40,188 bases of DNA from the IMG/VR virus record IMGVR_UViG_2534681762_000013. One strand, written 5' to 3'. Source of the DNA: a virus (Duplodnaviria; Heunggongvirae; Uroviricota; Caudoviricetes). Under the pieces are notes generated by a model. That model was not told the DNA's origin, made no database searches, and saw only the letters and a program-made list of their open reading frames with translations. Shown here in pieces: positions 698 to 40,188 of the stretch. Each line of letters begins with the position of its first letter. Position 1 is the stretch's first letter. The position numbers were made by a program, and so were the translations under genes.

Positions 698-1060
698 GGG
701 GCTGATTCTGGATTCGACGGGATTTGCGAAACCCAAGGTGCATGCCGAGGGGCGGTTGGCCTCGTAAAAAGCCGCAAAAAATAGTCGCAAACGACGAAAA
801 CTACGCTTTAGCAGCTTAATAACCTGCTTAGAGCCCTCTCTCCCTAGCCTCCGCTCTTAGGACGGGGATCAAGAGAGGTCAAACCCAAAAGAGATCGCGT
901 GGAAGCCCTGCCTGGGGTTGAAGCGTTAAAACTTAATCAGGCTAGTTTGTTAGTGGCGTGTCCGTCCGCAGCTGGCAAGCGAATGTAAAGACTGACTAAG
1001 CATGTAGTACCGAGGATGTAGGAATTTCGGACGCGGGTTCAACTCCCGCCAGCTCCACCA
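698..1060 (+). ncRNA. ssrA: tmRNA (transfer-messenger RNA)
   Basis: Starts GGGGCTGATTCTGGATTCGACGGG, contains the tag reading frame GCAAACGACGAAAACTACGCTTTAGCAGCTTAA (ANDENYALAA), and ends with the tRNA-like GGTTCAACTCCCGCCAGCTCCACCA; 363 nt. Confidence 0.95.
1016..1053. repeat. attL core: 38-bp direct repeat formed by the 3' end of ssrA
   Basis: ATGTAGGAATTTCGGACGCGGGTTCAACTCCCGCCAGC is repeated identically at 34447..34484; the two copies bracket the prophage. Confidence 0.75.
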
Positions 1061-2565: not shown

Positions 2566-3047
2566 TGCAGCAATCCTCCTACCGTGTTCTTAATCCCCCC
2601 AATCGCAGAGGCAGCAGAGTCCTGCAGGTTGCTGAGCTGGTCACTCAGGCTCCCGAACATGTCAGACAGTGATTCATCAACCCGTTTGAGGGTGATCGTA
2701 AACTCAATGCGCCTGGGCATACCGCTGGCAAAAAACTCCGTCTTTGTCTGGCTCAGACTTTCAATAACAAACATGCCGTAAATGGTTCCGCTGCCTTCAA
2801 TCAAAGGCCAGGCTTTGCCCTGCTCTGCCATCAACTCCAGCGCCAGCAATGACAACCTGCCTCCGGTCACTTCCGGCAGCAGAACCCCGGACAGTGTCAG
2901 TGAATCATTATCCGGGCCAAGAAACTGCGTTGACGGGCGGCGATTCACCCGGCTGTTGGCGGCATGTCGCCAGCTGCGCTGATACTGCAGCTCCTGATAA
3001 GGGACAGTGCGCAGCATAAATACATATAAACCCAGCACCATCATCAT
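2562..3047 (-). CDS. U: P2 gpU-like tail protein
   Basis: 161-aa ORF starting MMMVLGLYVFMLRTVPYQELQYQRSW, matching remembered P2 gpU; start overlaps the T stop (ATGA). Confidence 0.85.
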   Translation of the reverse strand: MMMVLGLYVFMLRTVPYQELQYQRSWRHAANSRVNRRPSTQFLGPDNDSLTLSGVLLPEVTGGRLSLLALELMAEQGKAWPLIEGSGTIYGMFVIESLSQTKTEFFASGMPRRIEFTITLKRVDESLSDMFGSLSDQLSNLQDSAASAIGGIKNTVGGLLQ

Positions 3048-6000
3048 GATTCATACCCCCCCTGATCGCTGAAATTGCTGCGCGCTTTTGCCCTGGCCCT
3101 GCGTTCCCGCTCGTCAAGCTGACGTGCCACTTCACGGGCAATATCCTGCGCACTCTGTCCCGGCTGCGCGACGATATGAATGGGCGCATTTATCTCATAA
3201 CGAATAACTGACGGCGGGCTGTCAGCCTTCACTGGCTGCGTCTGGTATGCACTCGCAGGCAGACTGAACGGATGAAGCGGAACCGCTTCTGCAGGTGTCG
3301 CAGCAACCCCCATAACGCCTGCAACGACAGAGGCAAGCGCAGCAGTACGCCGCCTGCTGGTGACATTTGCCGGTCCGTTCACAATTTCAGGGCCATTTTC
3401 TCCAACAATGCCAAACTGCCCGCGTGGAATGATCCCGCCCGTGTCGTACATCCCTGCGTAAGCCGGGAACCCGCCTGGCGGCAGCACCACTTTGCCGTCA
3501 CTGTTCACCGTGGCGGATTGCTGTTGCGTGACCTGTGCAGGCAGTTTCGCCTTTGCCGCCTCCTTACTGACAATACCGAGCTTTTCCAGTAGCCATGACA
3601 CACCGGATTTAAGAGACTCCAGCGGGTGCATCACCATAGTCAGACCTTCCGCCAGCGCCTCACCAAACCGGCGCCCCATTGCAGCTGCGCTGTTCAGTTC
3701 TTCGGAAGTGGATTTAACCGGCGAAAGTAAATCGCTGAACCAGCCCCACAAGGCCTGCACCCTGTCACCAATCCACTGGAACATGGGCCTGAGCGGCTCA
3801 AAGGCGGCGCTGATTGGCGCTGCAGCGGCTTTGAACCCTTCCACCACGCCCCCCAGAAATGCACTGATGGGCTGCCAGTATTTCCACACAACCAGCGCCA
3901 CACCAGCCAGCGCAGCCACAACCAGCCCTATCGGACTGAGCAGCGCACCCAGCAGGCCGGAAATACCAAACAGCGCGCCGCGAAGTAATGCCAGCGGACC
4001 AGAAACAAGAAAACGCAATACGCCACCGGCAGCTGTCAGCCCACCACGCAACGCCGCCAGCGGGTTCATCACCATACCGATAACATTACGGATGCCTGAC
4101 ATACCGACACGGAACACGGCAAGCGGAGCACCTGCCACCGTTTTCAGTGCATTACCCGCTATTCCGGCTGAGCGACGCAGGGAATTAAGCGGGGCACTCA
4201 GTAACCCTACACTGCCACCGGATGACGCCATACCCCGACGCAACAGGGAAAGTGGCGCACCTGCCAGCCATGACAGGGCACCGCCAGTACGTGTTACCGC
4301 TGCAGCAACGGAAGGTAATGTTTTTACACCCAGCACAGACAGGCCAAACCGAATCACCGCAATCGGCCCCAGCACAGCAGCCACTGCCACGGCAAGTGTA
4401 CCCAGCCCGACAGTGACAGCCGCCGTAGCCGCCGCCACTTTCATCAGCGTGCCAGCCAGCACGGGATTCTGCTCCACCCAGCGACGCAGCGCCCCGGTCA
4501 CGCCCTTAACCATGCCCATAATATCCATCAGCGGCTGGCGCAACGTTTCCCCCAGACTGCTGAAAGCGTTCTGCGCGCCAGTCTTAACCAGCAACCACTG
4601 CGCAGACAATGAATCCTTGTTAATGTCGGATTCTTTCTGCATCGAGCCATTCGCACCACTGCCTGATGTGAGTTTCAGCTGACGCTGCAGCTCCGGCAGG
4701 TTGTTAGCCAGCTTTGCCGCATCATCGCCAAACTCTTTACCAAAAATCATTGTCATGGCTGACAGGCGTTTATCCTGCGGCAGATTGTTGACCTTCTCCA
4801 GAACCCGCTGAATGGTGCCCATGGCATCGGTGGTCATCTGCTTTTCAATCTCCGCAGGATTGAGTTTCAGCAGATTCATACCTTCAAAGAAGCGCTTACT
4901 TTGCATGGTGGCAATGGACAGTTCACGCACCATGGCATTAGAGGCGCTGGAGGCAATTTCCGGGGCAGCCCCAAGAGAAAGGAATGTTGAACCCAGCGCA
5001 GCAGCTTTTCGGAAGTCAAGGCGGTCAGCCACGCCCCCCATACGCTGCAGGACGTTGATAATGTCCCCGCCCTTTGACATGGCGTTATCGTCCAGGTAGT
5101 TCAGCGCATCGCCCAGTTGTTCAATATTGCGCGTCGGCACTTTATAGAGCTGCGCGATTTTCCCCAATCCTTCCGCCAGCTCATCGGCGGGCAGCTCAAA
5201 GGCCGTTGCAGCTTTTGCCGCCGTGGATGCAAAGGCCAGCAGGTCACGTTTCTGGTCCTCAAAGAGATCGTCCTGGCTGGTCACGCCCATACGCGCGCCC
5301 CCTTCAACCAGCGCGGCATAATCTATAGCGCCATTCTCCATCGGCAGCTGCTCACTGGCAGCCTTAATGGCATCCTGCATGTCATAAAACTGTTTTGTAC
5401 GGTTGCCGTTATCGTCCCGCAACCCGTTTACCTGCTTTGCCACGCCTTTCATGGCATCTTCCATGCTGGCGTAGCTTTTCACTGCAGCCAAAACCGGCGC
5501 ACCCATTGCCAGCCCGGCAGCTGTAGTGGTGGCTCCGGCTCCGGCTATGCGATCCCGAACCTCAAGACGGCGCGAATACTGATCACGAACCGCATTCATT
5601 CTCGCCTGCTGTTCACCCAGGTGTTTCAGAGATTTTTGCTGTCGCTCCAGTGCCAGTCGGGTTTCATCGGCGTTCTGCCGTAGCTCACGCTGTGCGCTGC
5701 TCAGTTTCTTTGTATCAAGCCCTGCCTCATTCAGCGCAAGGCGCTGACGCTGCACTGACTGACGCAGCCCGTTATATTTTCCCTGTAAATCGGTGACGCG
5801 ATTTTTAGCCTGCTCAAGCAGCCTGGCCTGAGCTGCCGTCGGGCGGTTGGTCGCAGTAAACTGCGTGGCGAGTTTTGCCGCTTCTTCGCGGGCGGCTTTA
5901 AGGCTGTTACCTGTGACTGCTAGCTGCGCGCTGGCCTTACGGAAGCCATCAATTCTGCCCGCCTGAGAATCTAACTCTTTCAGCCGGGCGCGGCTTTGCT

Positions 6001-6109
6001 GAATGGCGGCAGCCAGCTCTTTTGAGCTGGTCTGCGCGGATCGAAATGGGCGGGTGAGCTTGTCAACCGCATTCAGAATCACCTGCAGACGCAGGTTATT
6101 GTCACTCAT
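3044..6109 (-). CDS. T: tail tape measure protein (gpT-like)
   Basis: 1021-aa ORF with a coiled-coil N-terminal half and Gly/Ala-rich hydrophobic middle, positioned between E/E' and U. Confidence 0.85.
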   Translation of the reverse strand: MSDNNLRLQVILNAVDKLTRPFRSAQTSSKELAAAIQQSRARLKELDSQAGRIDGFRKASAQLAVTGNSLKAAREEAAKLATQFTATNRPTAAQARLLEQAKNRVTDLQGKYNGLRQSVQRQRLALNEAGLDTKKLSSAQRELRQNADETRLALERQQKSLKHLGEQQARMNAVRDQYSRRLEVRDRIAGAGATTTAAGLAMGAPVLAAVKSYASMEDAMKGVAKQVNGLRDDNGNRTKQFYDMQDAIKAASEQLPMENGAIDYAALVEGGARMGVTSQDDLFEDQKRDLLAFASTAAKAATAFELPADELAEGLGKIAQLYKVPTRNIEQLGDALNYLDDNAMSKGGDIINVLQRMGGVADRLDFRKAAALGSTFLSLGAAPEIASSASNAMVRELSIATMQSKRFFEGMNLLKLNPAEIEKQMTTDAMGTIQRVLEKVNNLPQDKRLSAMTMIFGKEFGDDAAKLANNLPELQRQLKLTSGSGANGSMQKESDINKDSLSAQWLLVKTGAQNAFSSLGETLRQPLMDIMGMVKGVTGALRRWVEQNPVLAGTLMKVAAATAAVTVGLGTLAVAVAAVLGPIAVIRFGLSVLGVKTLPSVAAAVTRTGGALSWLAGAPLSLLRRGMASSGGSVGLLSAPLNSLRRSAGIAGNALKTVAGAPLAVFRVGMSGIRNVIGMVMNPLAALRGGLTAAGGVLRFLVSGPLALLRGALFGISGLLGALLSPIGLVVAALAGVALVVWKYWQPISAFLGGVVEGFKAAAAPISAAFEPLRPMFQWIGDRVQALWGWFSDLLSPVKSTSEELNSAAAMGRRFGEALAEGLTMVMHPLESLKSGVSWLLEKLGIVSKEAAKAKLPAQVTQQQSATVNSDGKVVLPPGGFPAYAGMYDTGGIIPRGQFGIVGENGPEIVNGPANVTSRRRTAALASVVAGVMGVAATPAEAVPLHPFSLPASAYQTQPVKADSPPSVIRYEINAPIHIVAQPGQSAQDIAREVARQLDERERRARAKARSNFSDQGGYES

Positions 6110-26062: not shown

Positions 26063-26095
26063 AGGCCGCTAATCATGCGGCCTTAATTTATTTAC
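26063..26095. terminator. bidirectional hairpin terminator between Q and the convergent small-gene operon
   Basis: AGGCCGC-TAATCAT-GCGGCCT stem-loop with AT/T-rich flanks. Confidence 0.45.
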
Positions 26096-26361
26096 CAATT
26101 TCGACCAGGAGCCTTTAACCATGTAGAACAAGAATAATTTAATGAGGCCCAAGATTTTTGTAAACGAGCAACAAAGATCACATCGTTACTATCAACATTT
26201 GCTTTAAGTCCATCACGCAATTGCGCTGCAGAAAGCGTGGTATCGATTAACCAAAAGGATTCTAAATGTTTGCAGTAGTCAAACTTTTTGAGATAGGTAA
26301 AAACATCATCATAGTTCTTGCCTGGAGCTTTCAAGTCATACGTTACACAATAGACCGCCAT
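26092..26361 (-). CDS. hypothetical 89-aa protein (weak VapD/Cas2-like N-terminal pattern)
   Basis: AT-rich ORF with a GGAG RBS, 3 nt downstream of the zinc-ribbon gene; the N-terminus MAVYCVTYDLK... loosely recalls the first strand of VapD/Cas2-fold proteins. Confidence 0.5.
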   Translation of the reverse strand: MAVYCVTYDLKAPGKNYDDVFTYLKKFDYCKHLESFWLIDTTLSAAQLRDGLKANVDSNDVIFVARLQKSWASLNYSCSTWLKAPGRNW

Positions 26362-26364
26362 CTT

Positions 26365-26547
26365 TTATGCTCCGCACTTTTTATCATTTGGAGAACATCT
26401 TAATCGACGACATCTGCGACAATATGATTGTGGAATCAAACGTTCCCCTTCCATCATTCTAAAACCAAATACCTCTTCAATTTTGTTCAGATCACCACTT
26501 GCAGCGACCCCACAACAAGGACAATAAGCTTTAACTTGATACGGCAT
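26365..26547 (-). CDS. hypothetical 60-aa C4 zinc-ribbon protein
   Basis: CPCC...CRRC cysteine pairs; start taken at the Met with a GGAG RBS; AT-rich; forms an operon with the 89-aa gene. Confidence 0.45.
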   Translation of the reverse strand: MPYQVKAYCPCCGVAASGDLNKIEEVFGFRMMEGERLIPQSYCRRCRRLRCSPNDKKCGA

Positions 26548-26647
26548 GTTTATCTCCATTTCACATGTTTTGAGTAGAGTAATCTATCCGTCCAAGCAAA
26601 AATGAGACATAGCTCTTGAAAGCTGTCCCAAACCAACCAGCGCGCGC

Positions 26648-26666: not shown

Positions 26667-26868
26667 GCCCGCTTTGTGTAGTGGTTTTCATGCACCTGCA
26701 TGACATAAGCAAAAGCCCGCCAGTTCTGGCGGGCCTGAGCAAAAACGATCCTCAAACGATCATGCGATTTCATGCGGCATAGACATGCACAACAGCGCTA
26801 ACGCCTCGCGTGGCTCGTTGTTCAACCTTGCGGACGGTAAAAACCAGTTTTATCGTCCGCAACGTTCG

Positions 26869-27102: not shown

Positions 27103-27113
27103 ACAGATTCCCC

Positions 27114-27302
27114 TTAACTGGTTACATCCATTGACCGGCAGTATTCATGGCTGCGGATTTTCGCCATCAGCTCGTCGGTCAGTTCGGACACCCACTGGAT
27201 AGCCAGCCGCTTTTCTTCGTCGCTACACTCACTAGCCGCTACAAGCTTGATAAAAAAATCAATGCGCTGGAGCTTCAACGACTCCAAAAGATAATCCTGC
27301 AT
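27114..27302 (-). CDS. small SOS-operon protein, candidate Tum-like antirepressor
   Basis: 62 aa from the Met with a GGAGGG RBS; located between the LexA box and the DinI-like gene, mirroring the SOS-induced tum locus of phage 186; the ORF-track 98-aa version would span the promoter. Confidence 0.45.
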   Translation of the reverse strand: MQDYLLESLKLQRIDFFIKLVAASECSDEEKRLAIQWVSELTDELMAKIRSHEYCRSMDVTS

Positions 27303-27351
27303 TTTCCCTCCTATCACCACCTCGGATACACAACAACTGTATATATATCCA

Positions 27352-27367
27352 CTGTTTATAATTACAG
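27352..27367. promoter_or_regulatory. LexA (SOS) box overlapping the promoter of the Tum-like/DinI-like operon
   Basis: CTGTTTATAATTACAG fits CTGT-N8-ACAG with an AT-rich spacer; an adjacent imperfect copy lies at 27337..27354; about 50 nt upstream of the start codon at 27302. Confidence 0.6.
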
Positions 27368-27463
27368 TATAGTAGGAATTTGCGAATGTAAACCGTTTTT
27401 TATCTGTCAATTAGATCGCTCTGATGCGGATCAATAAGAGCAAGAATTGTTAAAGCTGCGGCA

Positions 27464-27760
27464 TCAGTACCACTGACGCCATTTGTCATCTTCCTGCAGA
27501 CGGTGGTTGCGGTAAAAAATACGCAGCCCGGCACCTGACGGAATACTGCCGCCGCGCAGAAGCAGGTCAATCTCTGACTCGCTACCATCGAACCCTCTGG
27601 AACTCAGTTCTGCCTCAAGCTGCAGGCGCTGCTGATCCGAAATAGTCTGTTTATATGCTTTTTTCCGCTTCGGTTTTACCAGCCTTAACCTGGCTGTCAG
27701 CTCCCGCCGTTCCTTCTGGCCCATGTTGTGGAGATATTCCTGCAGCTCCCTCTCATCCAT
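27464..27760 (-). CDS. hypothetical protein downstream of A
   Basis: 98-aa ORF whose 5' end overlaps the A stop; basic central region; no recognisable motif. Confidence 0.35.
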
Positions 27761-29871
27761 AGTTTTAATATCGGGTAAATCCCCCCTGATTTGTTCAGAT
27801 TTTCAACAGGGGGACAGTTATTGCCACGAGTCCAAGGGGCGCAAGCGCCCTGGTCGGCTGCCGCCTCCTGAACATCAACGGCCTTACGAACCTTTTTCCA
27901 CTTCACCGCGTGCGTGCAAATCTTGCCCTCTGCAATCGGGGACCAGATGCCATAGATACGGATACCGTGATCGCCGTAGGCGCTCGGTTCGTCGTTAAGC
28001 TCATAAGCCGTGCGGACAAGGTGATGTTTGCGGGGAACCAGCACGCCGCCCTGCTTCATGATGTAGGTGGCAAAGCAGCCCGCATCAGCCGCCGCCAGTA
28101 CCGCATCCAGACGCGGATTATCCAGTACCGGCGCACCCGCTTTGCGTTCGCCCTGCACTCTCGCCACCTGACCAGCCAGCAAGCGCAGCTCGCGGTATGC
28201 CTGACGCCCTGGAATACCAAAGAAACGAAATTGCTGGACACGGTGCAGTGACGCCCAGGCGCTGACATGCTCGGCACTGTCACGCAGCGATCTGCCGGTT
28301 TCTTTGCTGATTTCTTTAGCCAGCCCACGCCCGTCGATGTTCTTGCTGATGTATTTGGCGATGTAGCTGGTCGGCGTGCCCTTGCGCGGGTTGATTAGCT
28401 CGGATTTGAAGCGCGGCCCGGTGTTGGTGCCCAGCTCCTCGCGGTCTTCACGGATGGCAAACTTGCGCAGCATCGCAGTGATGAAACGGCGGTCTTTTTT
28501 GCGCATGAAGCACAACAGATGCCAGTGCACTGTGCCGTCATGGTGCGGCTCCGCAACGCGGACGCCATACCAGCGCAGCCCGGCCTTGTGCATTGCCTTG
28601 CGGAAAGCGGCGAACGTATCAACCAGATAGTCACTGCTCTGCCGGACTGTGGCACTGGTCCACTTCGGATTAGGTCTGCCGTTGTTGAGGGTTGCGTGGA
28701 AGCGTGACGGGCAGGTGATGGTATAGAACACTGCGCAGTCTCCGCGCATTTCCGCTATCAGCTCCAGTCCCTTAACACAGGCCATCATTTCATTACGGCG
28801 GTGTGCCGGGTTGCTGTTACTGGCGTTCACCACGTCTTCCATGTCCAGCGTGTCACCGTCTTCGTTGACCAGCTCATGTGAGCGGAAGAACTCCAGCGAT
28901 TTGCGGCGCTGCTCGCGCTTGTGGATCACGGCTTCATAGCTGACATACGGGGACGCTTTTTTGTTGACCAAGCAGACAGCACGCAGCTGTTCCTCCCGCC
29001 ACTCGCAGCGCATCTGCCACAATTTGCGATACCACCAGTCCGCGCACAGCATCCGCGCCAGCGACGGTGGGATCAGTTCATAGGGCACCGGCTTGCGTCG
29101 ACGCTTTTTGCGGCGTAACTGCTCAAACGCAGGCGGGATGATCTCAAGGCGCATCGCCTCTGCTGCAACCCTTTCCCATGCCTGGCGGATTTCTTCTGGT
29201 TTAACATCGTCGCTGACAAACAGATCACCGCAGGCCGCATCAAGACACATGCTCATATGAGCCGCAACCAGCGTGGAAAGACGCTTGACCTGATCCTGAT
29301 TCATTTCAGGCAGTACCAGCAGCCCCTCCAGCCCGTCATGACTTGCCATGAACCGGAAAGAGGCAGACACCTGACTGTCACGCACGCGCTCCAGCCGCTC
29401 AAGACAGGGCCTAATTGTTTCGCGCAGGTAGCGGGAATAGGCTTTTGCTCTGCCCAGGCTATGGAAATATTTAATCCGCTCCAGCAGAGGCTTGCTGATA
29501 TGGGACGGCATGGCGTTAACGTCAGCCAGAATGACCAGATCGGGATTAAAACGCTGCTGCTCGCGCGCCATTTTGGCACGACTAATCAGCCGGTCCTGCT
29601 CCATTTCGCGCTGGACAGGATCACGGGATTCATTGAAGAAATAGCGTTCCCAGACCTCATCGCTCAGCGTCTCACGGCGCAGCTGCTCCTGCTCGTTATC
29701 CGCAGCGTAAAGAGCAATCAGGTTTGAAAGCGCAGACCCCGGCGCAACTTCCGCCGGGTCCAGATATGGGTTAACCGCTTTTTTGGGGTTATTCCATGAA
29801 AAGGCCACGGCGGCCTCATTCGAGCCGCCGGTGGTTGGTGCATTATGTAATGTGAATTTACTCACTGCCAC
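27697..29871 (-). CDS. A: replication initiation endonuclease gpA-like (rolling-circle)
   Basis: 724 aa with the conserved [13 protein letters not shown] tyrosine motif and HWHLLCF histidine cluster. Confidence 0.9.
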
Positions 29872-31759: not shown

Positions 31760-32269
31760 TCAGATCAGACCAAACGAAGCGCCGAGGCCCGTCACGGTAT
31801 CCACCGCGCTTGCCATCGCCGGGTTAGCCTGTAAACGCGCCTGCATCGAAACGGCAGCCAGTGCCATCAGACGAGTAACAGAGTTAATGCTGCTGATAAC
31901 ATCGCGGCGGCCTGCGGTGGTTTTCACATCACCCGATACGGCACCGGCAGCAACACGTCCGATTTCAGCAGTAGCGCTCATGACGTAATGCGGCAGCTTC
32001 TCTTTTGCCACTTCATTCAATGGCACGCACGGCAGGCAATGGATTTGAGCCAGAAAACCGTCAACCAGCGTTGAGTCTTCTGTGATATCAGTCAGCAGCC
32101 AGATCTCCGGCGGGGTAAGTTGATGCGGTTGCTCCGGGTTCAGCTTGTTGCGCAGCGTCTGGACATTCATTCCTGCGCGTTCTGCCAGCTTCGCCATGTT
32201 GTGACGCAGCGAGAAAGCCCGGCAGGCTTCATCAAAATGCGGATGTTTGGAAATCTTATAATCAAACAT
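31760..32269 (-). CDS. cII: 186 CII-like transcriptional activator
   Basis: 169 aa MFDYKISKHPHFDEACRAFSLRHNMAKLAERAGMNVQTLRNKLNPEQPHQLTPPEIWLLTD..., closely matching remembered 186 CII in sequence and length. Confidence 0.75.
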   Translation of the reverse strand: MFDYKISKHPHFDEACRAFSLRHNMAKLAERAGMNVQTLRNKLNPEQPHQLTPPEIWLLTDITEDSTLVDGFLAQIHCLPCVPLNEVAKEKLPHYVMSATAEIGRVAAGAVSGDVKTTAGRRDVISSINSVTRLMALAAVSMQARLQANPAMASAVDTVTGLGASFGLI

Positions 32270-32301
32270 GTTTCATACCTCAAAAGTTCACATAATTGAA
32301 C

Positions 32302-32550
32302 TTAACAACCAACTACAACGTTGTAATTGAATGCAGACTTGTCCATGTTTTTGCTTGCTTGGTCTTTTTTGTACTTGAGGTAAAGGATGAATACGCGGCC
32401 TTTGTTTTTTTCTTTCTTTTCAATGTAGTTAGCCAATTTACCGTTATGAATCATCTGATAAACAGAACCACGGGAATACCCTTCCCACTTAGCAAACTCG
32501 GCTGGCGTCGCTATCACTTTTGGTACACGAATTGAAATATCAGTGCTCAT
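32302..32550 (-). CDS. apl: Apl/Cox-type excisionase and lytic-promoter regulator
   Basis: 82-aa HTH-like ORF, first gene of the lytic operon, divergent from cI as in 186. Confidence 0.6.
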   Translation of the reverse strand: MSTDISIRVPKVIATPAEFAKWEGYSRGSVYQMIHNGKLANYIEKKEKNKGRVFILYLKYKKDQASKNMDKSAFNYNVVVGC

Positions 32551-34646: not shown

Positions 34647-37600
34647 TCAGAACGACCAGTTCACACCAGCTACCCCGTTCCACGGGGATTCCACACCGGC
34701 ACCATGGCTATACCCCACCCCAAGATGCCCGCTTAACGTACTGCTGAATGAGGCTTTAATACCTGCCTGGTATATTCCACGTCTGCCCGACAAATCATTG
34801 ACGAAATTACCGTCACTATTCACTTTCACCCGGTTATCATCGACAAATTCTTTGCGCACAGCCGCCTTCAGCCACGGCTCAACTTCCATACCGTTCCCCA
34901 GACGCATGTTGTAACTCAGCGTTGCACCCAGTTCACGATATAAACTGCGGGTATCGACTGATTTCGATTCCATGCCATTGGATAAATGATATTCAGGGTT
35001 ATCAGCGGTGAACCCCCGTTAACGATGCATACGGCGTCAGGTTCCAGTTACCATCGGTAAATCGCATCCCGGTTTCAATGTGACCGCCCAGCCCGTTGCT
35101 GCGATAACTGCCGTTGGCGGCTCCACCGCTGCCAACCGTGGAGTCGCGAGCTTCGGTACCTGCTAATACCAATAAATTACCGCCATTTTCCAGCAACATA
35201 TTGGTCGCTAAATTGCCGGAAATGGAAAAAGTGCCGTACTGGTGAGTACCGCTGATTTCAATACCGTTAGCCGTGCTCGTCTGGAGAGCGGCACCGCTGT
35301 TCTGGACGATATCTGTCGCTTTGCCATTATCGTTAACTGTCAGCGTACCGCCTTCATTGATCTTTGTTTTTATTGCCTCTCCGTTAGCTGAAACTGTTTG
35401 TATTCCGCCGTCGTTAATCGTTGTCTCATTCGCCACCCCCTCGACGATTTGTTCGCCGCCGGTGAGCGTCGTGCCTGTCGCAGTGGCTTTTGTTTTGACG
35501 ATCTCCCGTCCGCCCGTATTGACCTGTGTTTTGTCAGAAGAGGTGTCTGACTCCACGGTTAACACGCCGCCATTTGCCAGCAGGATATTGTTCGCCGCAC
35601 CCTGCTCGATGCTGAACGCGACGCCATCCGCGCGTGTTCCTGTGACCCGCGTCGCCCTGGTGGTTGCAACCAAAGCGCCCTGGCTACTCTGCTGTATCCC
35701 CGTTGCGCTGCCTTTCTCCCGCACATCGAGTGTGCCGCCGTCATTAAGCACCGAGTTTTCAGCCAGACCGCCCTCATTAACTACCTGTGAACACCCATTA
35801 ATAATGGAACCTTCCGCTATCCCGTTTGCCATAATTTGTTGTAGGCCAGAGACGATATCGGTATTGATCGCCTTACCATAATTCTGAACAGTTTGTGTGC
35901 CGCCATTGATGTGCGTTTTGTCAGTTGACCCACCATCAACAATTTGTTCACCACTTTCAATATTTGCCTCAGTGGCTAAACCATATACCGTTTGCTTGCC
36001 ACCTTTGATATTTGCTTTATCAGAAGTGGCACTGGCATATATTGTTTGGGTGCCAGCACTATTAAGTACAGTGCCAACATCTTTTCCATAAACATCCATT
36101 TTGCCGTTGGCATTAATAATCGTATCAACTGCCCGGGAACCAGTGACGACTGTTAATGAGCCAGCGTTTTCCAGCACTACATTTTTAGCTTCTGAATTCC
36201 TGATGTAGAAAGCATCACCATAACTGTTGGTTCCTTCGATAAGGGTTCCGGAAGTTGTGGAAGCAATTAATGCGCCGCCGGATTGTTGCTCAACATGCTT
36301 AGCCTCACCACCGTCCTGAACCTCCAGAACGCCACCATTATTAAGTCTGGTGGTATCTGTTTTAGCCTCCTTCTGGACAATCAGCTTACCGCCAGCATCA
36401 ACGGTAGTATTTTTCGCCGAGGTTTTAGCCACTACCGTCAGTTCGCCGGTATTTTCCAGCACAACATAATTAGCCTCCCCTCCGGTAATAGTGAAGTGAG
36501 AGAGCTTGTTGTATCCTTCAATATCAGTCCCTGCGCCCGTGTTGGCAACTAAAGCACTGCCCGTCTCCTGGTTAACCCCATGTGCAATACCGCCGGTATA
36601 GACAATCAGCGAGCCTCCGGCGCTAATATTGCTGCCAATTGCCGTACCATCTTTCTCAACAACTTGCTGGCTCCCGGAGGATATAATTGTTGTGTCAGCT
36701 TTCCCACCGCTTTTGATATTTTGCGTTCCGCTGTTGATATTGGTGCCTGTGGCTATGCCATAATTATTAAGATTCTGTGTGCCACCATTAATTATGGTAT
36801 TTGTCGCGTTTCCTGCAACATCCATAACCCCGCCATTATCTATTCGGGTCGCATCAGCTTTAGCATTCGTTAAAACTGACATTGTTCCTTTATCTTTAAT
36901 AATCGTCTTGTTTGCGGAATGAGATACTTCTAAATGGCCTCCATTTTCCAGCAACACATTGTCTTCCACTTTATTGTGGATGGAGAATGCACCTTCACTA
37001 TTCGTACCGCTCACCGTCGTACCGTTAGTGTTTGTTTTTAAAATTGCACCATCGTGCTGGGTAACATTTGTTGCCGTACCACCACTAACATCAAGCACGC
37101 CACCGGAATAAACTTCAATAACATCCGAGGTGCTGGTGTTATCAACAATTTGCGTGCCACCAGAATAGATCTGCGTAATTTTTGCCGTTGACTTACTATT
37201 CAGAGACTGAGTTCCGCCTTCAATCGTCGTGTCCAGCGCACGGCTCTCATATACTCTTTGCTCACCGCCATTTTTAATGGTTGTTGTTTCTACTGTGCTC
37301 TGTTCAACATACTGTCGACCACCATTTATGGTTGTGTTCGTTGCCAGACTTCCTTGTACTACGTCCTGAGAGCCAGACTTATTTATCGTTGTACCATCAG
37401 CATGCCCTTGAACTTTTACTATCTGGCTACCACCATCAATGAGTATTCCATTCGCACTCCCTCCCTCTACGCGTGAAGCACCGCCCTTAATTGTCGTTCC
37501 ATTGCTGATACCCCCTTTATAAACGTCCTGATTGCCACTCTCGATTGTCGTACCTGTGGAAATACCCCCGTCATGAATTGACTGTCTGCCACCGTTAATG

Positions 37601-37911
37601 GTTGTATTATTAGCCTGCCCCACAAAATTGTTATGACTTCCTATATCTTGATATCCACCAGATTCAATAAGACTTCCATTAGATACCCCGCCATGAACAT
37701 TCTGCTGGCCATGGTTGATAATATGAGTGTTATTTGTTGTACCTCGTTCATCCACTTTTTGGTTGCCATCTACAGTCTCATCGTTTACCACACCAATAAC
37801 ATCAGGAGTGAAGGCCGCCATACCGGGCGGGGCATATATCAAGGCAGATATCAATAAGGAAAGTACTGAGCGGCGACAATAATGGGGACTGGTCCTGTTC
37901 ATAAATTTCAT
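34647..37911 (-). pseudogene. autotransporter adhesin-like gene, disrupted
   Basis: Signal peptide (MKFMNRTSPHYCRRSVLSLLISALIYA) and a roughly 970-aa passenger of degenerate Gly/Thr/Asn-rich repeats in one frame (to 35002); the last ~108 aa of a beta-barrel ending ...GVNWSF lie in another frame (34647..34973); total barrel region too short for a complete translocator. Confidence 0.65.
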
Positions 37912-38240
37912 CCTCTGAAAAGTGAATACTGAGTAGCGTTTAAGCGACCTTAGCTCTGCTGCAACATCAGCCCACAGGCACCAGACCAGGGGATTCATCC
38001 TGAAGAGACAGCGCAAGTGTATTGTGTTCACCGCTCATCAAAGACATCATGATGAAATGATGATATTCCACATAAGAAAGAAGCATTTTTTAAACGCAGT
38101 GCGCTGAAGTATGGTTGGATAAAAAAGTCAATCTATTCAGGGAATACGGGGGTATTCTTTTCTTTCGACAATCAGGTCGTCGGCAAAATAAAATGATTTA
38201 CATAATCGTTTCTGATGAATATCTTCTGCTCACATAAAAA

Positions 38241-38814: not shown

Positions 38815-40188
38815 TCATTGAAAACTGCTTTTAGAACTTGATACAACGGGACTAGTCACAACAGGACTATTCTCAACGGGATCATCCTCAGAGGAACTAT
38901 CATCAAAGTCATCATCCATAAATAAAATATCATCGAATGGTGCCACGCCCGTGATGAGTTTTATTTTATTATTACGATCAGTCAAGACTCCACTTAAACC
39001 GTTTTCGCTCACAGGTTTTAATGATTTTTCATTACTCTTGTTGTAAGCAGGCGCATTAAAAATACACGGAGTATCAAGATCAAACAATGACGTTCCCCAG
39101 TTCACATATTGAATATCATAGTTACTGAAGTTCTGTCCAGAAAAGAAGCATCCCTTAAAATCCAATCCACCTAAATTATATAAACCATCCTCTTCTTTTT
39201 GGAGAGTAATGTTAATTTTGGCTATCTCCCGGACATCATCGCCATTTTTATATTTGAATACCGTTTCAAGATTTTCCCCACACAGTTTGACTTCTGGAAA
39301 TAATTTGAAATCAAAGCCTATATTATTATGTATCAACGTAGATGAACAAAAGATGGAGAAAGCTTGCAGTGCTGAATTATAGCTTTCGATTTTATCCTGA
39401 GGCTGCGCTCTTGGTAAAAACTCATAGCAACATTCATAAAAATTAAGTAGAAACTCTGAAGACCTTCCATTTTTATCAAATAATATCCCCTTGAACTCAT
39501 TCACAAACGCATCTTTTTTTTCTTGAATATCTATGGGGTGTTCCTTTGACTCTGACAAAGATGAAATCTCATCTATTTTGTTTTCATATGAATTACGTGA
39601 TTCCATACAGACATTTGGCGGCGTTTCTAAAATAACACTACGCGTACTACTTGGCTTAAGTAAACCAACATGAAAATCACTTTTTCTTATATTATCGAAA
39701 AGGTTCTGTTCATTTCTTTTAGCGCATTCAAAAAACTGATCGGCATTATTTTTATTCGATAATTTTTTAGTTTCAGAAAACACATTTTCATTGTTTTCCA
39801 GCTTTAGTTTAATGAGAAGATTTTCCCAGACCTGCTTGCTTAAACATATTACGTCAGGCTCACCAGAACTAACTAACTCGTGATTATTATTAAAGTGTAC
39901 GTTGAATACCTTTAAGTTATTTTCACCAACTTCATATTTAATACGTTTTAATTGTTCTCCAGCTCCCATAATGACAAAGGCGTTGCCTTCTTGATATATA
40001 CATTCAGACATCATTTTTTGTAAAGTTTCAAGAGCACCGCGATACGTCTCTGATGCAGCTTCCTTACAAATTAATTTTAAAATACTATGAGCTAGTAGCT
40101 CCATGTGTTTAGAAGATTTATTTTCATTATAACTTCCACTACCCAAAACTGCGCTAGCGTTAAATCCGTTGCTTTTACTAACTAACAT
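38815..40188 (-). CDS. AT-rich hypothetical protein, 5' end at or beyond the window edge
   Basis: 457-aa ORF with low-GC codon usage, an acidic Ser/Asp-rich C-terminus and a short pentapeptide-repeat-like stretch; its first Met is the last codon of the window, so the true start may lie outside. Confidence 0.5.
   Translation of the reverse strand: MLVSKSNGFNASAVLGSGSYNENKSSKHMELLAHSILKLICKEAASETYRGALETLQKMMSECIYQEGNAFVIMGAGEQLKRIKYEVGENNLKVFNVHFNNNHELVSSGEPDVICLSKQVWENLLIKLKLENNENVFSETKKLSNKNNADQFFECAKRNEQNLFDNIRKSDFHVGLLKPSSTRSVILETPPNVCMESRNSYENKIDEISSLSESKEHPIDIQEKKDAFVNEFKGILFDKNGRSSEFLLNFYECCYEFLPRAQPQDKIESYNSALQAFSIFCSSTLIHNNIGFDFKLFPEVKLCGENLETVFKYKNGDDVREIAKINITLQKEEDGLYNLGGLDFKGCFFSGQNFSNYDIQYVNWGTSLFDLDTPCIFNAPAYNKSNEKSLKPVSENGLSGVLTDRNNKIKLITGVAPFDDILFMDDDFDDSSSEDDPVENSPVVTSPVVSSSKSSFQ

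Follow-up and report, generated by a model that had tools for sequence, protein, structure and literature searches.

The subject of this analysis is a small operon on the minus strand of a 40,188-nucleotide (nt) viral sequence, IMG/VR record IMGVR_UViG_2534681762_000013 (Caudoviricetes); "the window" hereafter means this whole stretch of DNA. Behind a predicted LexA-controlled promoter, the operon encodes a protein of 62 amino acids (aa) and then a DinI-like protein of 77 aa. We are highly confident that it represents the SOS operon carried by a Fels-2/SopEPhi-type P2-family prophage located at ssrA in E. coli, the counterpart of the p95-tum operon of phage 186, with tum split into two genes as in the tumA/tumB pair of PSP3. 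The module is already known as the split tum (tumA/tumB-type) SOS operon of Fels-2/SopEPhi-type prophages. Its confirmation adds little, because the circuit is textbook 186 biology and has been genetically tested in close relatives; the only addition to the known circuit is a conserved, predicted double LexA operator. The sequence anatomy, the homologies and the conservation are established here, and published work on orthologs has established that induction needs tum and a cleavable LexA and that the Fels-2 locus is induced by DNA damage.

The 62-aa protein is 100% identical to orf10 of SopEPhi, 90% identical to Tum of E. coli HS and 87% identical to STM2728 of Fels-2. In the P2-like prophage DuoHS of E. 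coli HS, an in-frame deletion of tum or a lexA(Ind-) allele each abolishes induction by mitomycin C (PMC12055606, PMC11195241). We mapped the published Δtum primers to NC_009800, where they flank ECHS_RS04495; this 62-aa gene lies immediately upstream of a DinI-like gene, and its product is the 90% identical ortholog. In Fels-2, STM2728 (62 aa) is followed by the DinI-family gene STM2726.1, annotated as 'similar to TumB'. Both the E. coli HS and the Fels-2 operons have a double SOS box upstream, as in the window. In Fels-2 a further gene, STM2726, follows dinI; the window has no such gene. A lexA null mutation is cited in PMC8072944 as lethal in Salmonella LT2 owing to Fels-2, and STM2727, part of the predicted operon STM2726-2728, was induced 5- to 15-fold by mutagen, among the strongest of the LexA-regulon genes (PMC2225428). 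The split pair is also present in SopEPhi as orf10 and orf11, with orf10 annotated as 'unknown'.

The relationship to 186 Tum was examined with PHROG profiles. The 62-aa protein matched phrog_698 (E = 2.8e-36), phrog_8554 (4.4e-8) and phrog_1993 (1.4e-3) and gave no match to phrog_189. Residues 1-69 of 186 Tum matched the same profiles (phrog_698, 6.4e-6; phrog_8554, 3.2e-12; phrog_1993, 1.9e-23) and also phrog_189, the fused Tum/DinI profile (1.1e-38); the match to phrog_698 is in register, with Tum residues 7-44 on profile positions 7-44. PSP3 TumA matched phrog_1993 (2.7e-32), with phrog_8554 at 0.15 and no match to phrog_698 or phrog_189. A four-sequence alignment had the common pattern ...R[IV][DE]...[KR]L.A...C....[KR].[LI]A[IL]...[VI][SA][ED][LI]. 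The sequence comparisons support homology, at the profile level only, between the 62-aa protein and the antirepressor half of 186 Tum, at its N-terminus.

Searches of Pfam, PADLOC and PDB sequences with the 62-aa protein returned nothing meaningful (PPP1R21_C, E = 0.029, under the cut-off). AlphaFold2 predicted a two-helix hairpin, with helices at residues 2-23 and 28-61 and a mean predicted local distance difference test score of 91.2. When this model was compared with the PDB by Foldseek, generic helical-hairpin and designed-protein matches were obtained, none at E ≤ 0.001, and the result is uninformative on function. Relatives of the protein fell into 480 clusters (E ≤ 0.001), nearly all carrying the name 'hypothetical protein', and came from Salmonella, Escherichia, Klebsiella, Enterobacter, Citrobacter, Cronobacter, Leclercia, Raoultella, Kosakonia and Tatumella. 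For conservation analysis we used 114 loci, all retrieved via the small gene: 34 from species-representative genomes and 80 from viral contigs. The product is exactly 62 aa long in 110 of them. Because of this constancy, and because a strong ribosome-binding site precedes the ATG at 27302, the 62-aa reading was preferred. A 98-aa version of the gene starting at TTG 27410 was rejected, as it would run through the promoter and operators, and an opposite-strand 96-aa open reading frame (ORF) at 27147..27437 was rejected along with it.

The 186 record describes p95, a LexA site over its -10 and tum, with 'expression repressed by LexA; inhibits CI DNA binding'; it also lists shorter DinI-like products that 'modulate SOS induction' and a partial terminator, t95a, after tum. 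Biochemically, 186 Tum binds CI and blocks operator binding (Shearwin et al. 1998, as cited in PMC3121763). Like p95-tum-orf97 of 186, the operon in the window lies downstream of gene A and near cos, has a LexA box over its -10 and is accompanied by a CI of the Phage_CI_repr/Phage_CI_C type. The two systems differ in that 186 Tum is a single 146-aa polypeptide with internal starts, whereas here two genes lie 11 nt apart; in that 186 has one near-consensus box of 27.4 bits, whereas here there are two overlapping boxes of 22.7 and 19.7 bits; and in that an orf97 homolog follows in 186, whereas here the operon stops at its terminator. The split arrangement is that of PSP3, whose record describes tumA (60 aa) as 'similar to 5' end 186 tum; UV induction of prophage' and the following tumB as 'similar to dinI and 3' end of 186 tum'. 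In Fels-2 and PSP3, the tum of 186 is split by a stop codon and the antirepressor activity lies in the upstream gene (Lemire 2011, PMC3121763). PSP3 TumA is nevertheless unlike the window protein in matching phrog_1993 and not phrog_698, in its 17% identity and in its single box. The Salmonella Gifsy operons dinI-gfoA/gftA, in which a LexA-repressed DinI homolog accompanies a small antirepressor acting against a non-cleavable repressor (PMC3121763), share with the window operon the LexA control, the pairing of DinI with an antirepressor and the non-cleavable repressor. They differ in having dinI first, so that the gene order is reversed, in belonging to lambdoid phages with unrelated repressors and antirepressors, and in the single LexA box described for them (PMC3121763).

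A first-pass annotation of this DNA had proposed a 186 Tum-like LexA circuit with the antirepressor and DinI functions possibly on separate genes. The PHROG cross-matches and the requirement for the E. coli HS ortholog support the circuit, and PSP3 tumA/tumB and Fels-2 bear out the separation; what the annotation left unsaid is that the arrangement had already been described. Its further claim of a 186-type CI/CII/Apl module agrees with the Pfam and PHROG matches, in which a Cox/Apl-like gene and a CII (CP76) gene adjoin CI. The prophage itself is a P2-family element, with int, at the tmRNA gene (ssrA, 698..1060). The window is 99.9% identical to several complete E. coli genomes, and an identical CI protein occurs in E. 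coli.

This CI is presumed to be the target of the antirepressor. A Pfam scan found it to be without an S24 peptidase domain, and CI self-cleavage was rejected on that ground as the route of induction. Because CI is of the non-cleavable type, an antirepressor is needed for SOS induction. CI is 34% identical to 186 CI and 58% identical to Fels-2 CI (31891..32523 of Fels-2 locus L119), the latter a much lower value than the 87% identity of the two antirepressors. Between the window and Fels-2 repressors, the helix-turn-helix (about residues 30-75) is nearly identical, and the differences lie in the linker and in parts of the C-terminal domain. This pattern may bear on the CI surface recognised by Tum and on cross-induction between prophages.

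The second gene of the operon was readily assigned. Its 77-aa product matched the Pfam family DinI (PF06183) over residues 15-76 with 84.1 bits (cut-off 24.2; E = 8.8e-24) and, among the PHROG profiles, phrog_189, 'RecA filament binding protein DinI' (5.3e-30). Against residues 71-145 of 186 Tum its identity is 41%, and its C-terminus, ...QQVWEDDSWLH, aligned with ...QEVWEDESWR of 186 Tum; the acidic helix of DinI that contacts RecA is a feature of the family. A DinI-like gene lies 8-13 nt downstream of the small gene in 99 of the 114 loci. The small gene stands behind an SOS box with no dinI-like gene within 600 nt downstream in 15 loci (L008, L016, L019, L021, L023, L026, L028-L034, L036 and L091), and in most of the ten of these that were examined hairpins directly follow the small gene. 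Because these 15 loci keep the small gene and its SOS box, the sequences suggest that the DinI half is dispensable. No fusion of the small gene to dinI occurred among the 114 loci, and the converse arrangement, dinI kept with the small gene lost, was not searched for.

The window contains three matches to CTGT-N8-ACAG against 0.51 expected, and 3 of 100 shuffled sequences also gave three; taken by itself, the bare pattern is of weak and unconvincing significance. We also scored 40,169 window positions with a LexA position weight matrix derived from 19 E. coli operators, which themselves span 13.2-27.3 bits. Box 1 had the top score in the window (22.7 bits) and box 2 the second (19.7 bits), the next best being 14.4 bits. 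The other two pattern matches (12282 and 26994) reached about 8 bits each and were dismissed as chance. The third-ranked site, TGCTGGGTGTAAAAACATTA (4316..4335, 14.4 bits), is most likely also chance; it lies inside a minus-strand ORF of tape-measure size (1021 aa, 3044..6109). Box 1 has the features of a gammaproteobacterial LexA box, as judged from the sequence: it is palindromic, scores within the operator range, overlaps the -10 and is conserved. The near-consensus box, its overlap with a -10-like region, its distance of about 50 nt from the 62-aa gene (50 nt to the ATG) and the DinI-family gene 11 nt after that gene had all been claimed in the first-pass annotation, and all were borne out. 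The span it gave, 27114..27367, takes in the small gene and box 1 and leaves the -35, the DinI gene and the terminator outside, and it missed the second, overlapping box.

Coordinates are collected in Table 1. We compared 103 distinct upstream sequences, including those of the window, 186, PSP3, Fels-2, SopEPhi and E. coli HS. The sequence (T)TTTACA occurs at a constant distance from the -10 in nearly all of these promoters, and TATACTGT in the -10 region is almost invariant among the related loci. The promoter is located between the replication gene A and cos. At the other end of the operon, about 130 nt past dinI, the terminator has a 10-base-pair (bp) stem with 7 G-C pairs. The hairpin directly after dinI is possibly a partial terminator or a transcript stabiliser, by analogy with t95a of 186. 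An Rfam scan and folding of the 5' untranslated region revealed no RNA element.

Table 1. Features of the SOS operon and the CI gene in the window
Feature	Position	Strand	Basis or remark
-35-like hexamer TTTACA	27392..27387	-	Read from sequence; belongs to the SOS promoter, equivalent of 186 p95
Spacer, TTTACA to TATACT, 15 nt	27386..27372	-	
-10-like hexamer TATACT	27371..27366	-	Overlaps SOS box 1
Alternative -10, TACTGT	27369..27364	-	17-nt spacer; 3/6 consensus positions; hexamer annotated as 186 p95 -10
Predicted SOS box 1, 20-mer TACTGTAATTATAAACAGTG	27350..27369; core CTGT-N8-ACAG 27367..27352	-	Exact pattern match
SOS box 1 as read on the plus strand, CTGTTTATAATTACAG	27352..27367	+	
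Predicted SOS box 2, 20-mer CAGTGGATATATATACAGTT	27335..27354; core GTGG-N8-ACAG 27352..27337	-	LexA matrix
Ribosome-binding site GGAGGG	27311..27306	-	Precedes ATG 27302
tumA-like (probable antirepressor) gene, 62 aa	ATG 27302 to stop 27114	-	
Intergenic gap, 11 nt	27113..27103	-	
dinI-like gene (tumB equivalent), 77 aa	27102..26869	-	Pfam DinI
Hairpin without U tract, directly after dinI	about 26861..26829	-	RNA fold
Intrinsic terminator	stem 26736..26713 and T-rich tail, to 26703	-	Terminator scan and RNA fold
186-type CI repressor gene, 210 aa	32670..33302	+	Pfam Phage_CI_repr and Phage_CI_C

The two boxes stand in tandem (CTGTAATTATAAACAG/TGGATATATATACAG) in a 15-bp register and have base 27352 in common. 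By its sequence, the operator is a colicin-style pair of predicted LexA sites sharing one base. Across the 103 promoters, which come from many enterobacterial genera, the position of box 1 is conserved, and the double box occurs at the exact 15-bp offset in 86 despite diverging flanks. A single box is found in 16, namely 186, PSP3 and more distant relatives from Pantoea, Tatumella and Erwinia. Single boxes tend to be stronger, at about 24-28.6 bits compared with about 22-24 bits for box 1 of the doubles (loci L003-L120, with 186 as L001 and PSP3 as L118), and this pattern of scores suggests that one strong site may be traded against two weaker ones acting cooperatively.

The arrangement is like that of the ColE1 cea operator (CTGTATATAAAACCAG/TGGTTATATGTACAG), where two 16-bp boxes also have one base in common and the second starts with GTGG. 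This operator was verified in NC_001371, where it lies directly 5' of the colicin E1 start codon. Two LexA dimers bind at colicin operators, which averts untimely expression (PMC2994835). Each of the two operons drives a product lethal to the cell, but the controlled genes differ, being a colicin/lysis operon in the colicins and a prophage antirepressor here. By analogy, the double operator should repress cooperatively and more tightly, and fire later, than one box would.

The following sequence of events is proposed. In the lysogen, LexA dimers would occupy both boxes and so lie over the -10 hexamer and the transcript start; because the predicted boxes cover these elements, the promoter would be silent. 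DNA damage would lead to RecA-stimulated cleavage of LexA and free the promoter, and a short bicistronic mRNA ending at the terminator near 26713 would then be made. By analogy with 186 Tum, the 62-aa helical-hairpin protein would bind the non-cleavable 186-type CI and stop it from binding its operators, the early lytic promoter (Apl, CII, replication) would fire and the prophage would be induced. A probable role of the DinI-like protein is to tune RecA filament activity, and hence the strength or duration of the SOS response; it would not be needed for antirepression. LexA occupancy of both boxes, direct Tum-CI contact for the allele in the window and the role of DinI are steps that we infer.

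Several points weigh against assigning the operon to this circuit. Pairwise BLASTP of the 62-aa protein against 186 Tum gave no alignment, for which reason the link to Tum was made through the PHROG profiles, and identity to 186 Tum and PSP3 TumA is just 17-18%. The published experiments are on orthologs, and the CI of the window is just 58% identical to the Fels-2 repressor. A consensus promoter scan did not call the SOS promoter, which was therefore assigned from conservation and the 186 annotation. In box 2, the half-site GTGG replaces CTGT. Finally, one nucleotide is missing from a run of C at about 27781-27786 (within 27775..27795) in the minus-strand gene A, which is thereby split (ORFs 27697..29871 and 27464..27760): frame -1 aligns with residues 1-694 of Fels-2 gpA, and frame -3 with residues 704-809. 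In E. coli S1, otherwise 99.9% identical, the run is C7 instead of the C6 of the window, and A is an intact 802-aa gene. Because of this frameshift, derepression may not yield phage here.

The split of gene A could be taken as the sign of a relic circuit, in which a defective prophage still expresses its SOS operon without productive induction. We regard this as unlikely, though deserving of consideration. The deletion represents either a mutation that inactivates A or a sequencing error in the homopolymer, A is annotated as 'truncated' in the record of SopEPhi as well, and the parts of tum-dinI are all intact and identical or nearly so to those of functional phages. SopEPhi is viable. This alternative also bears on the outcome of derepression and not on the identity of the module, which we continue to read as a split tum operon.

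We also considered whether box 1 alone works as a LexA site, so that the operator acts like the single box of 186, with box 2 being an AT-rich initial transcribed sequence kept for promoter escape or for the 5' structure of the mRNA. Such a reading would fit the upstream half-site of box 2, which departs from the canonical CTG, and the fact that 186, PSP3 and 14 further relatives manage with just one; a hairpin in the 5' untranslated region can include box 2, but not significantly (z = -1.2). It is improbable, however, given that box 2 scores within the range of genuine operators and second-best in 40 kb, and that its exact offset is kept in 86 of 103 promoters. The ColE1 operator, moreover, has a GTGG-N8-ACAG second box with one base in common, and two LexA dimers bind there (PMC2994835). 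The greater strength of the single boxes (24-28.6 against 22-24 bits) is as expected if the pair compensates for a weaker box 1. Continuing with two LexA sites, we tentatively propose, with somewhat less than even confidence, that Fels-2/SopEPhi-type prophages have swapped the single near-consensus box of 186 and PSP3 for a colicin-style pair, with cooperative LexA binding setting the timing of induction. A search of the searchable literature found no description of a double operator at tum, and searches on tumA/tumB likewise gave no relevant result; Bunny et al. 2002, on Fels-2, may already note one.

That the operon is instead an SOS accessory module, modulating host RecA and the SOS response only via DinI while the 62-aa protein is otherwise employed and induction takes another route, is very improbable: the 62-aa protein does lack a Pfam family, any solved or structural homolog and pairwise similarity to 186 Tum, and most databases name it 'hypothetical protein', but deletion of the 90% identical E. 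coli HS ortholog abolishes induction, PSP3 tumA is annotated as needed for induction by ultraviolet light, a CI without a self-cleavage domain requires an antirepressor, and 15 relatives have lost dinI yet keep the SOS-boxed small gene, with no fusion among the 114 loci, all of them retrieved via the small gene and the converse loss not searched for.

Two small cargo genes (26092..26559, minus strand) lie between the SOS-operon terminator and the portal gene/cos, at a spot for variable genes in the P2 family. The 64-aa ORF (26365..26559) has paired Cys motifs, belongs to phrog_19700 and is without PGAP annotation in E. coli S1. The 89-aa ORF (26092..26361) belongs to phrog_1090 and gave weak Cas2-like matches (PF09827, E = 0.002; PADLOC Cas2b, E = 9.6e-4) that are under curated or convincing levels. 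A sopE gene was not found in the window. To the right of the prophage end, the minus-strand region 34647..38031 holds a repeat-rich, autotransporter-like ORF of 1009 aa (35002..38031) and a 108-aa ORF (34647..34973) resembling a piece of a C-terminal beta-domain, and the autotransporter gene appears interrupted. A 457-aa ORF (38815..40188) begins at the edge of the window.

The module is present in about 1,100-1,300 of 5,426 complete E. coli genomes, roughly a fifth, where PGAP names the tumA-like product 'hypothetical protein'. In public records, RefSeq/PGAP E. coli genomes, SopEPhi, Fels-2 and the majority of phage entries call the gene 'hypothetical protein' or 'unknown'; the label 'levan regulatory (domain) protein' is wrongly given in a few, and the name tum is used solely in PSP3 and a few Yersinia phages. 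With the antirepressor still a 'hypothetical protein' in thousands of genomes, spreading the tumA annotation would help.

The module times the commitment to lysis after DNA damage, for example by fluoroquinolones, in prophages that are very common in E. coli, Salmonella and Klebsiella, and some members of the family carry virulence cargo such as sopE. The predicted double LexA operator would be a simple determinant of the threshold and timing of induction, and one that separates Fels-2-type from 186-type phages. If the proposed swap is true, it would mean a higher damage threshold or a later commitment to lysis, a tunable 'induction timer' that differs among related prophages.

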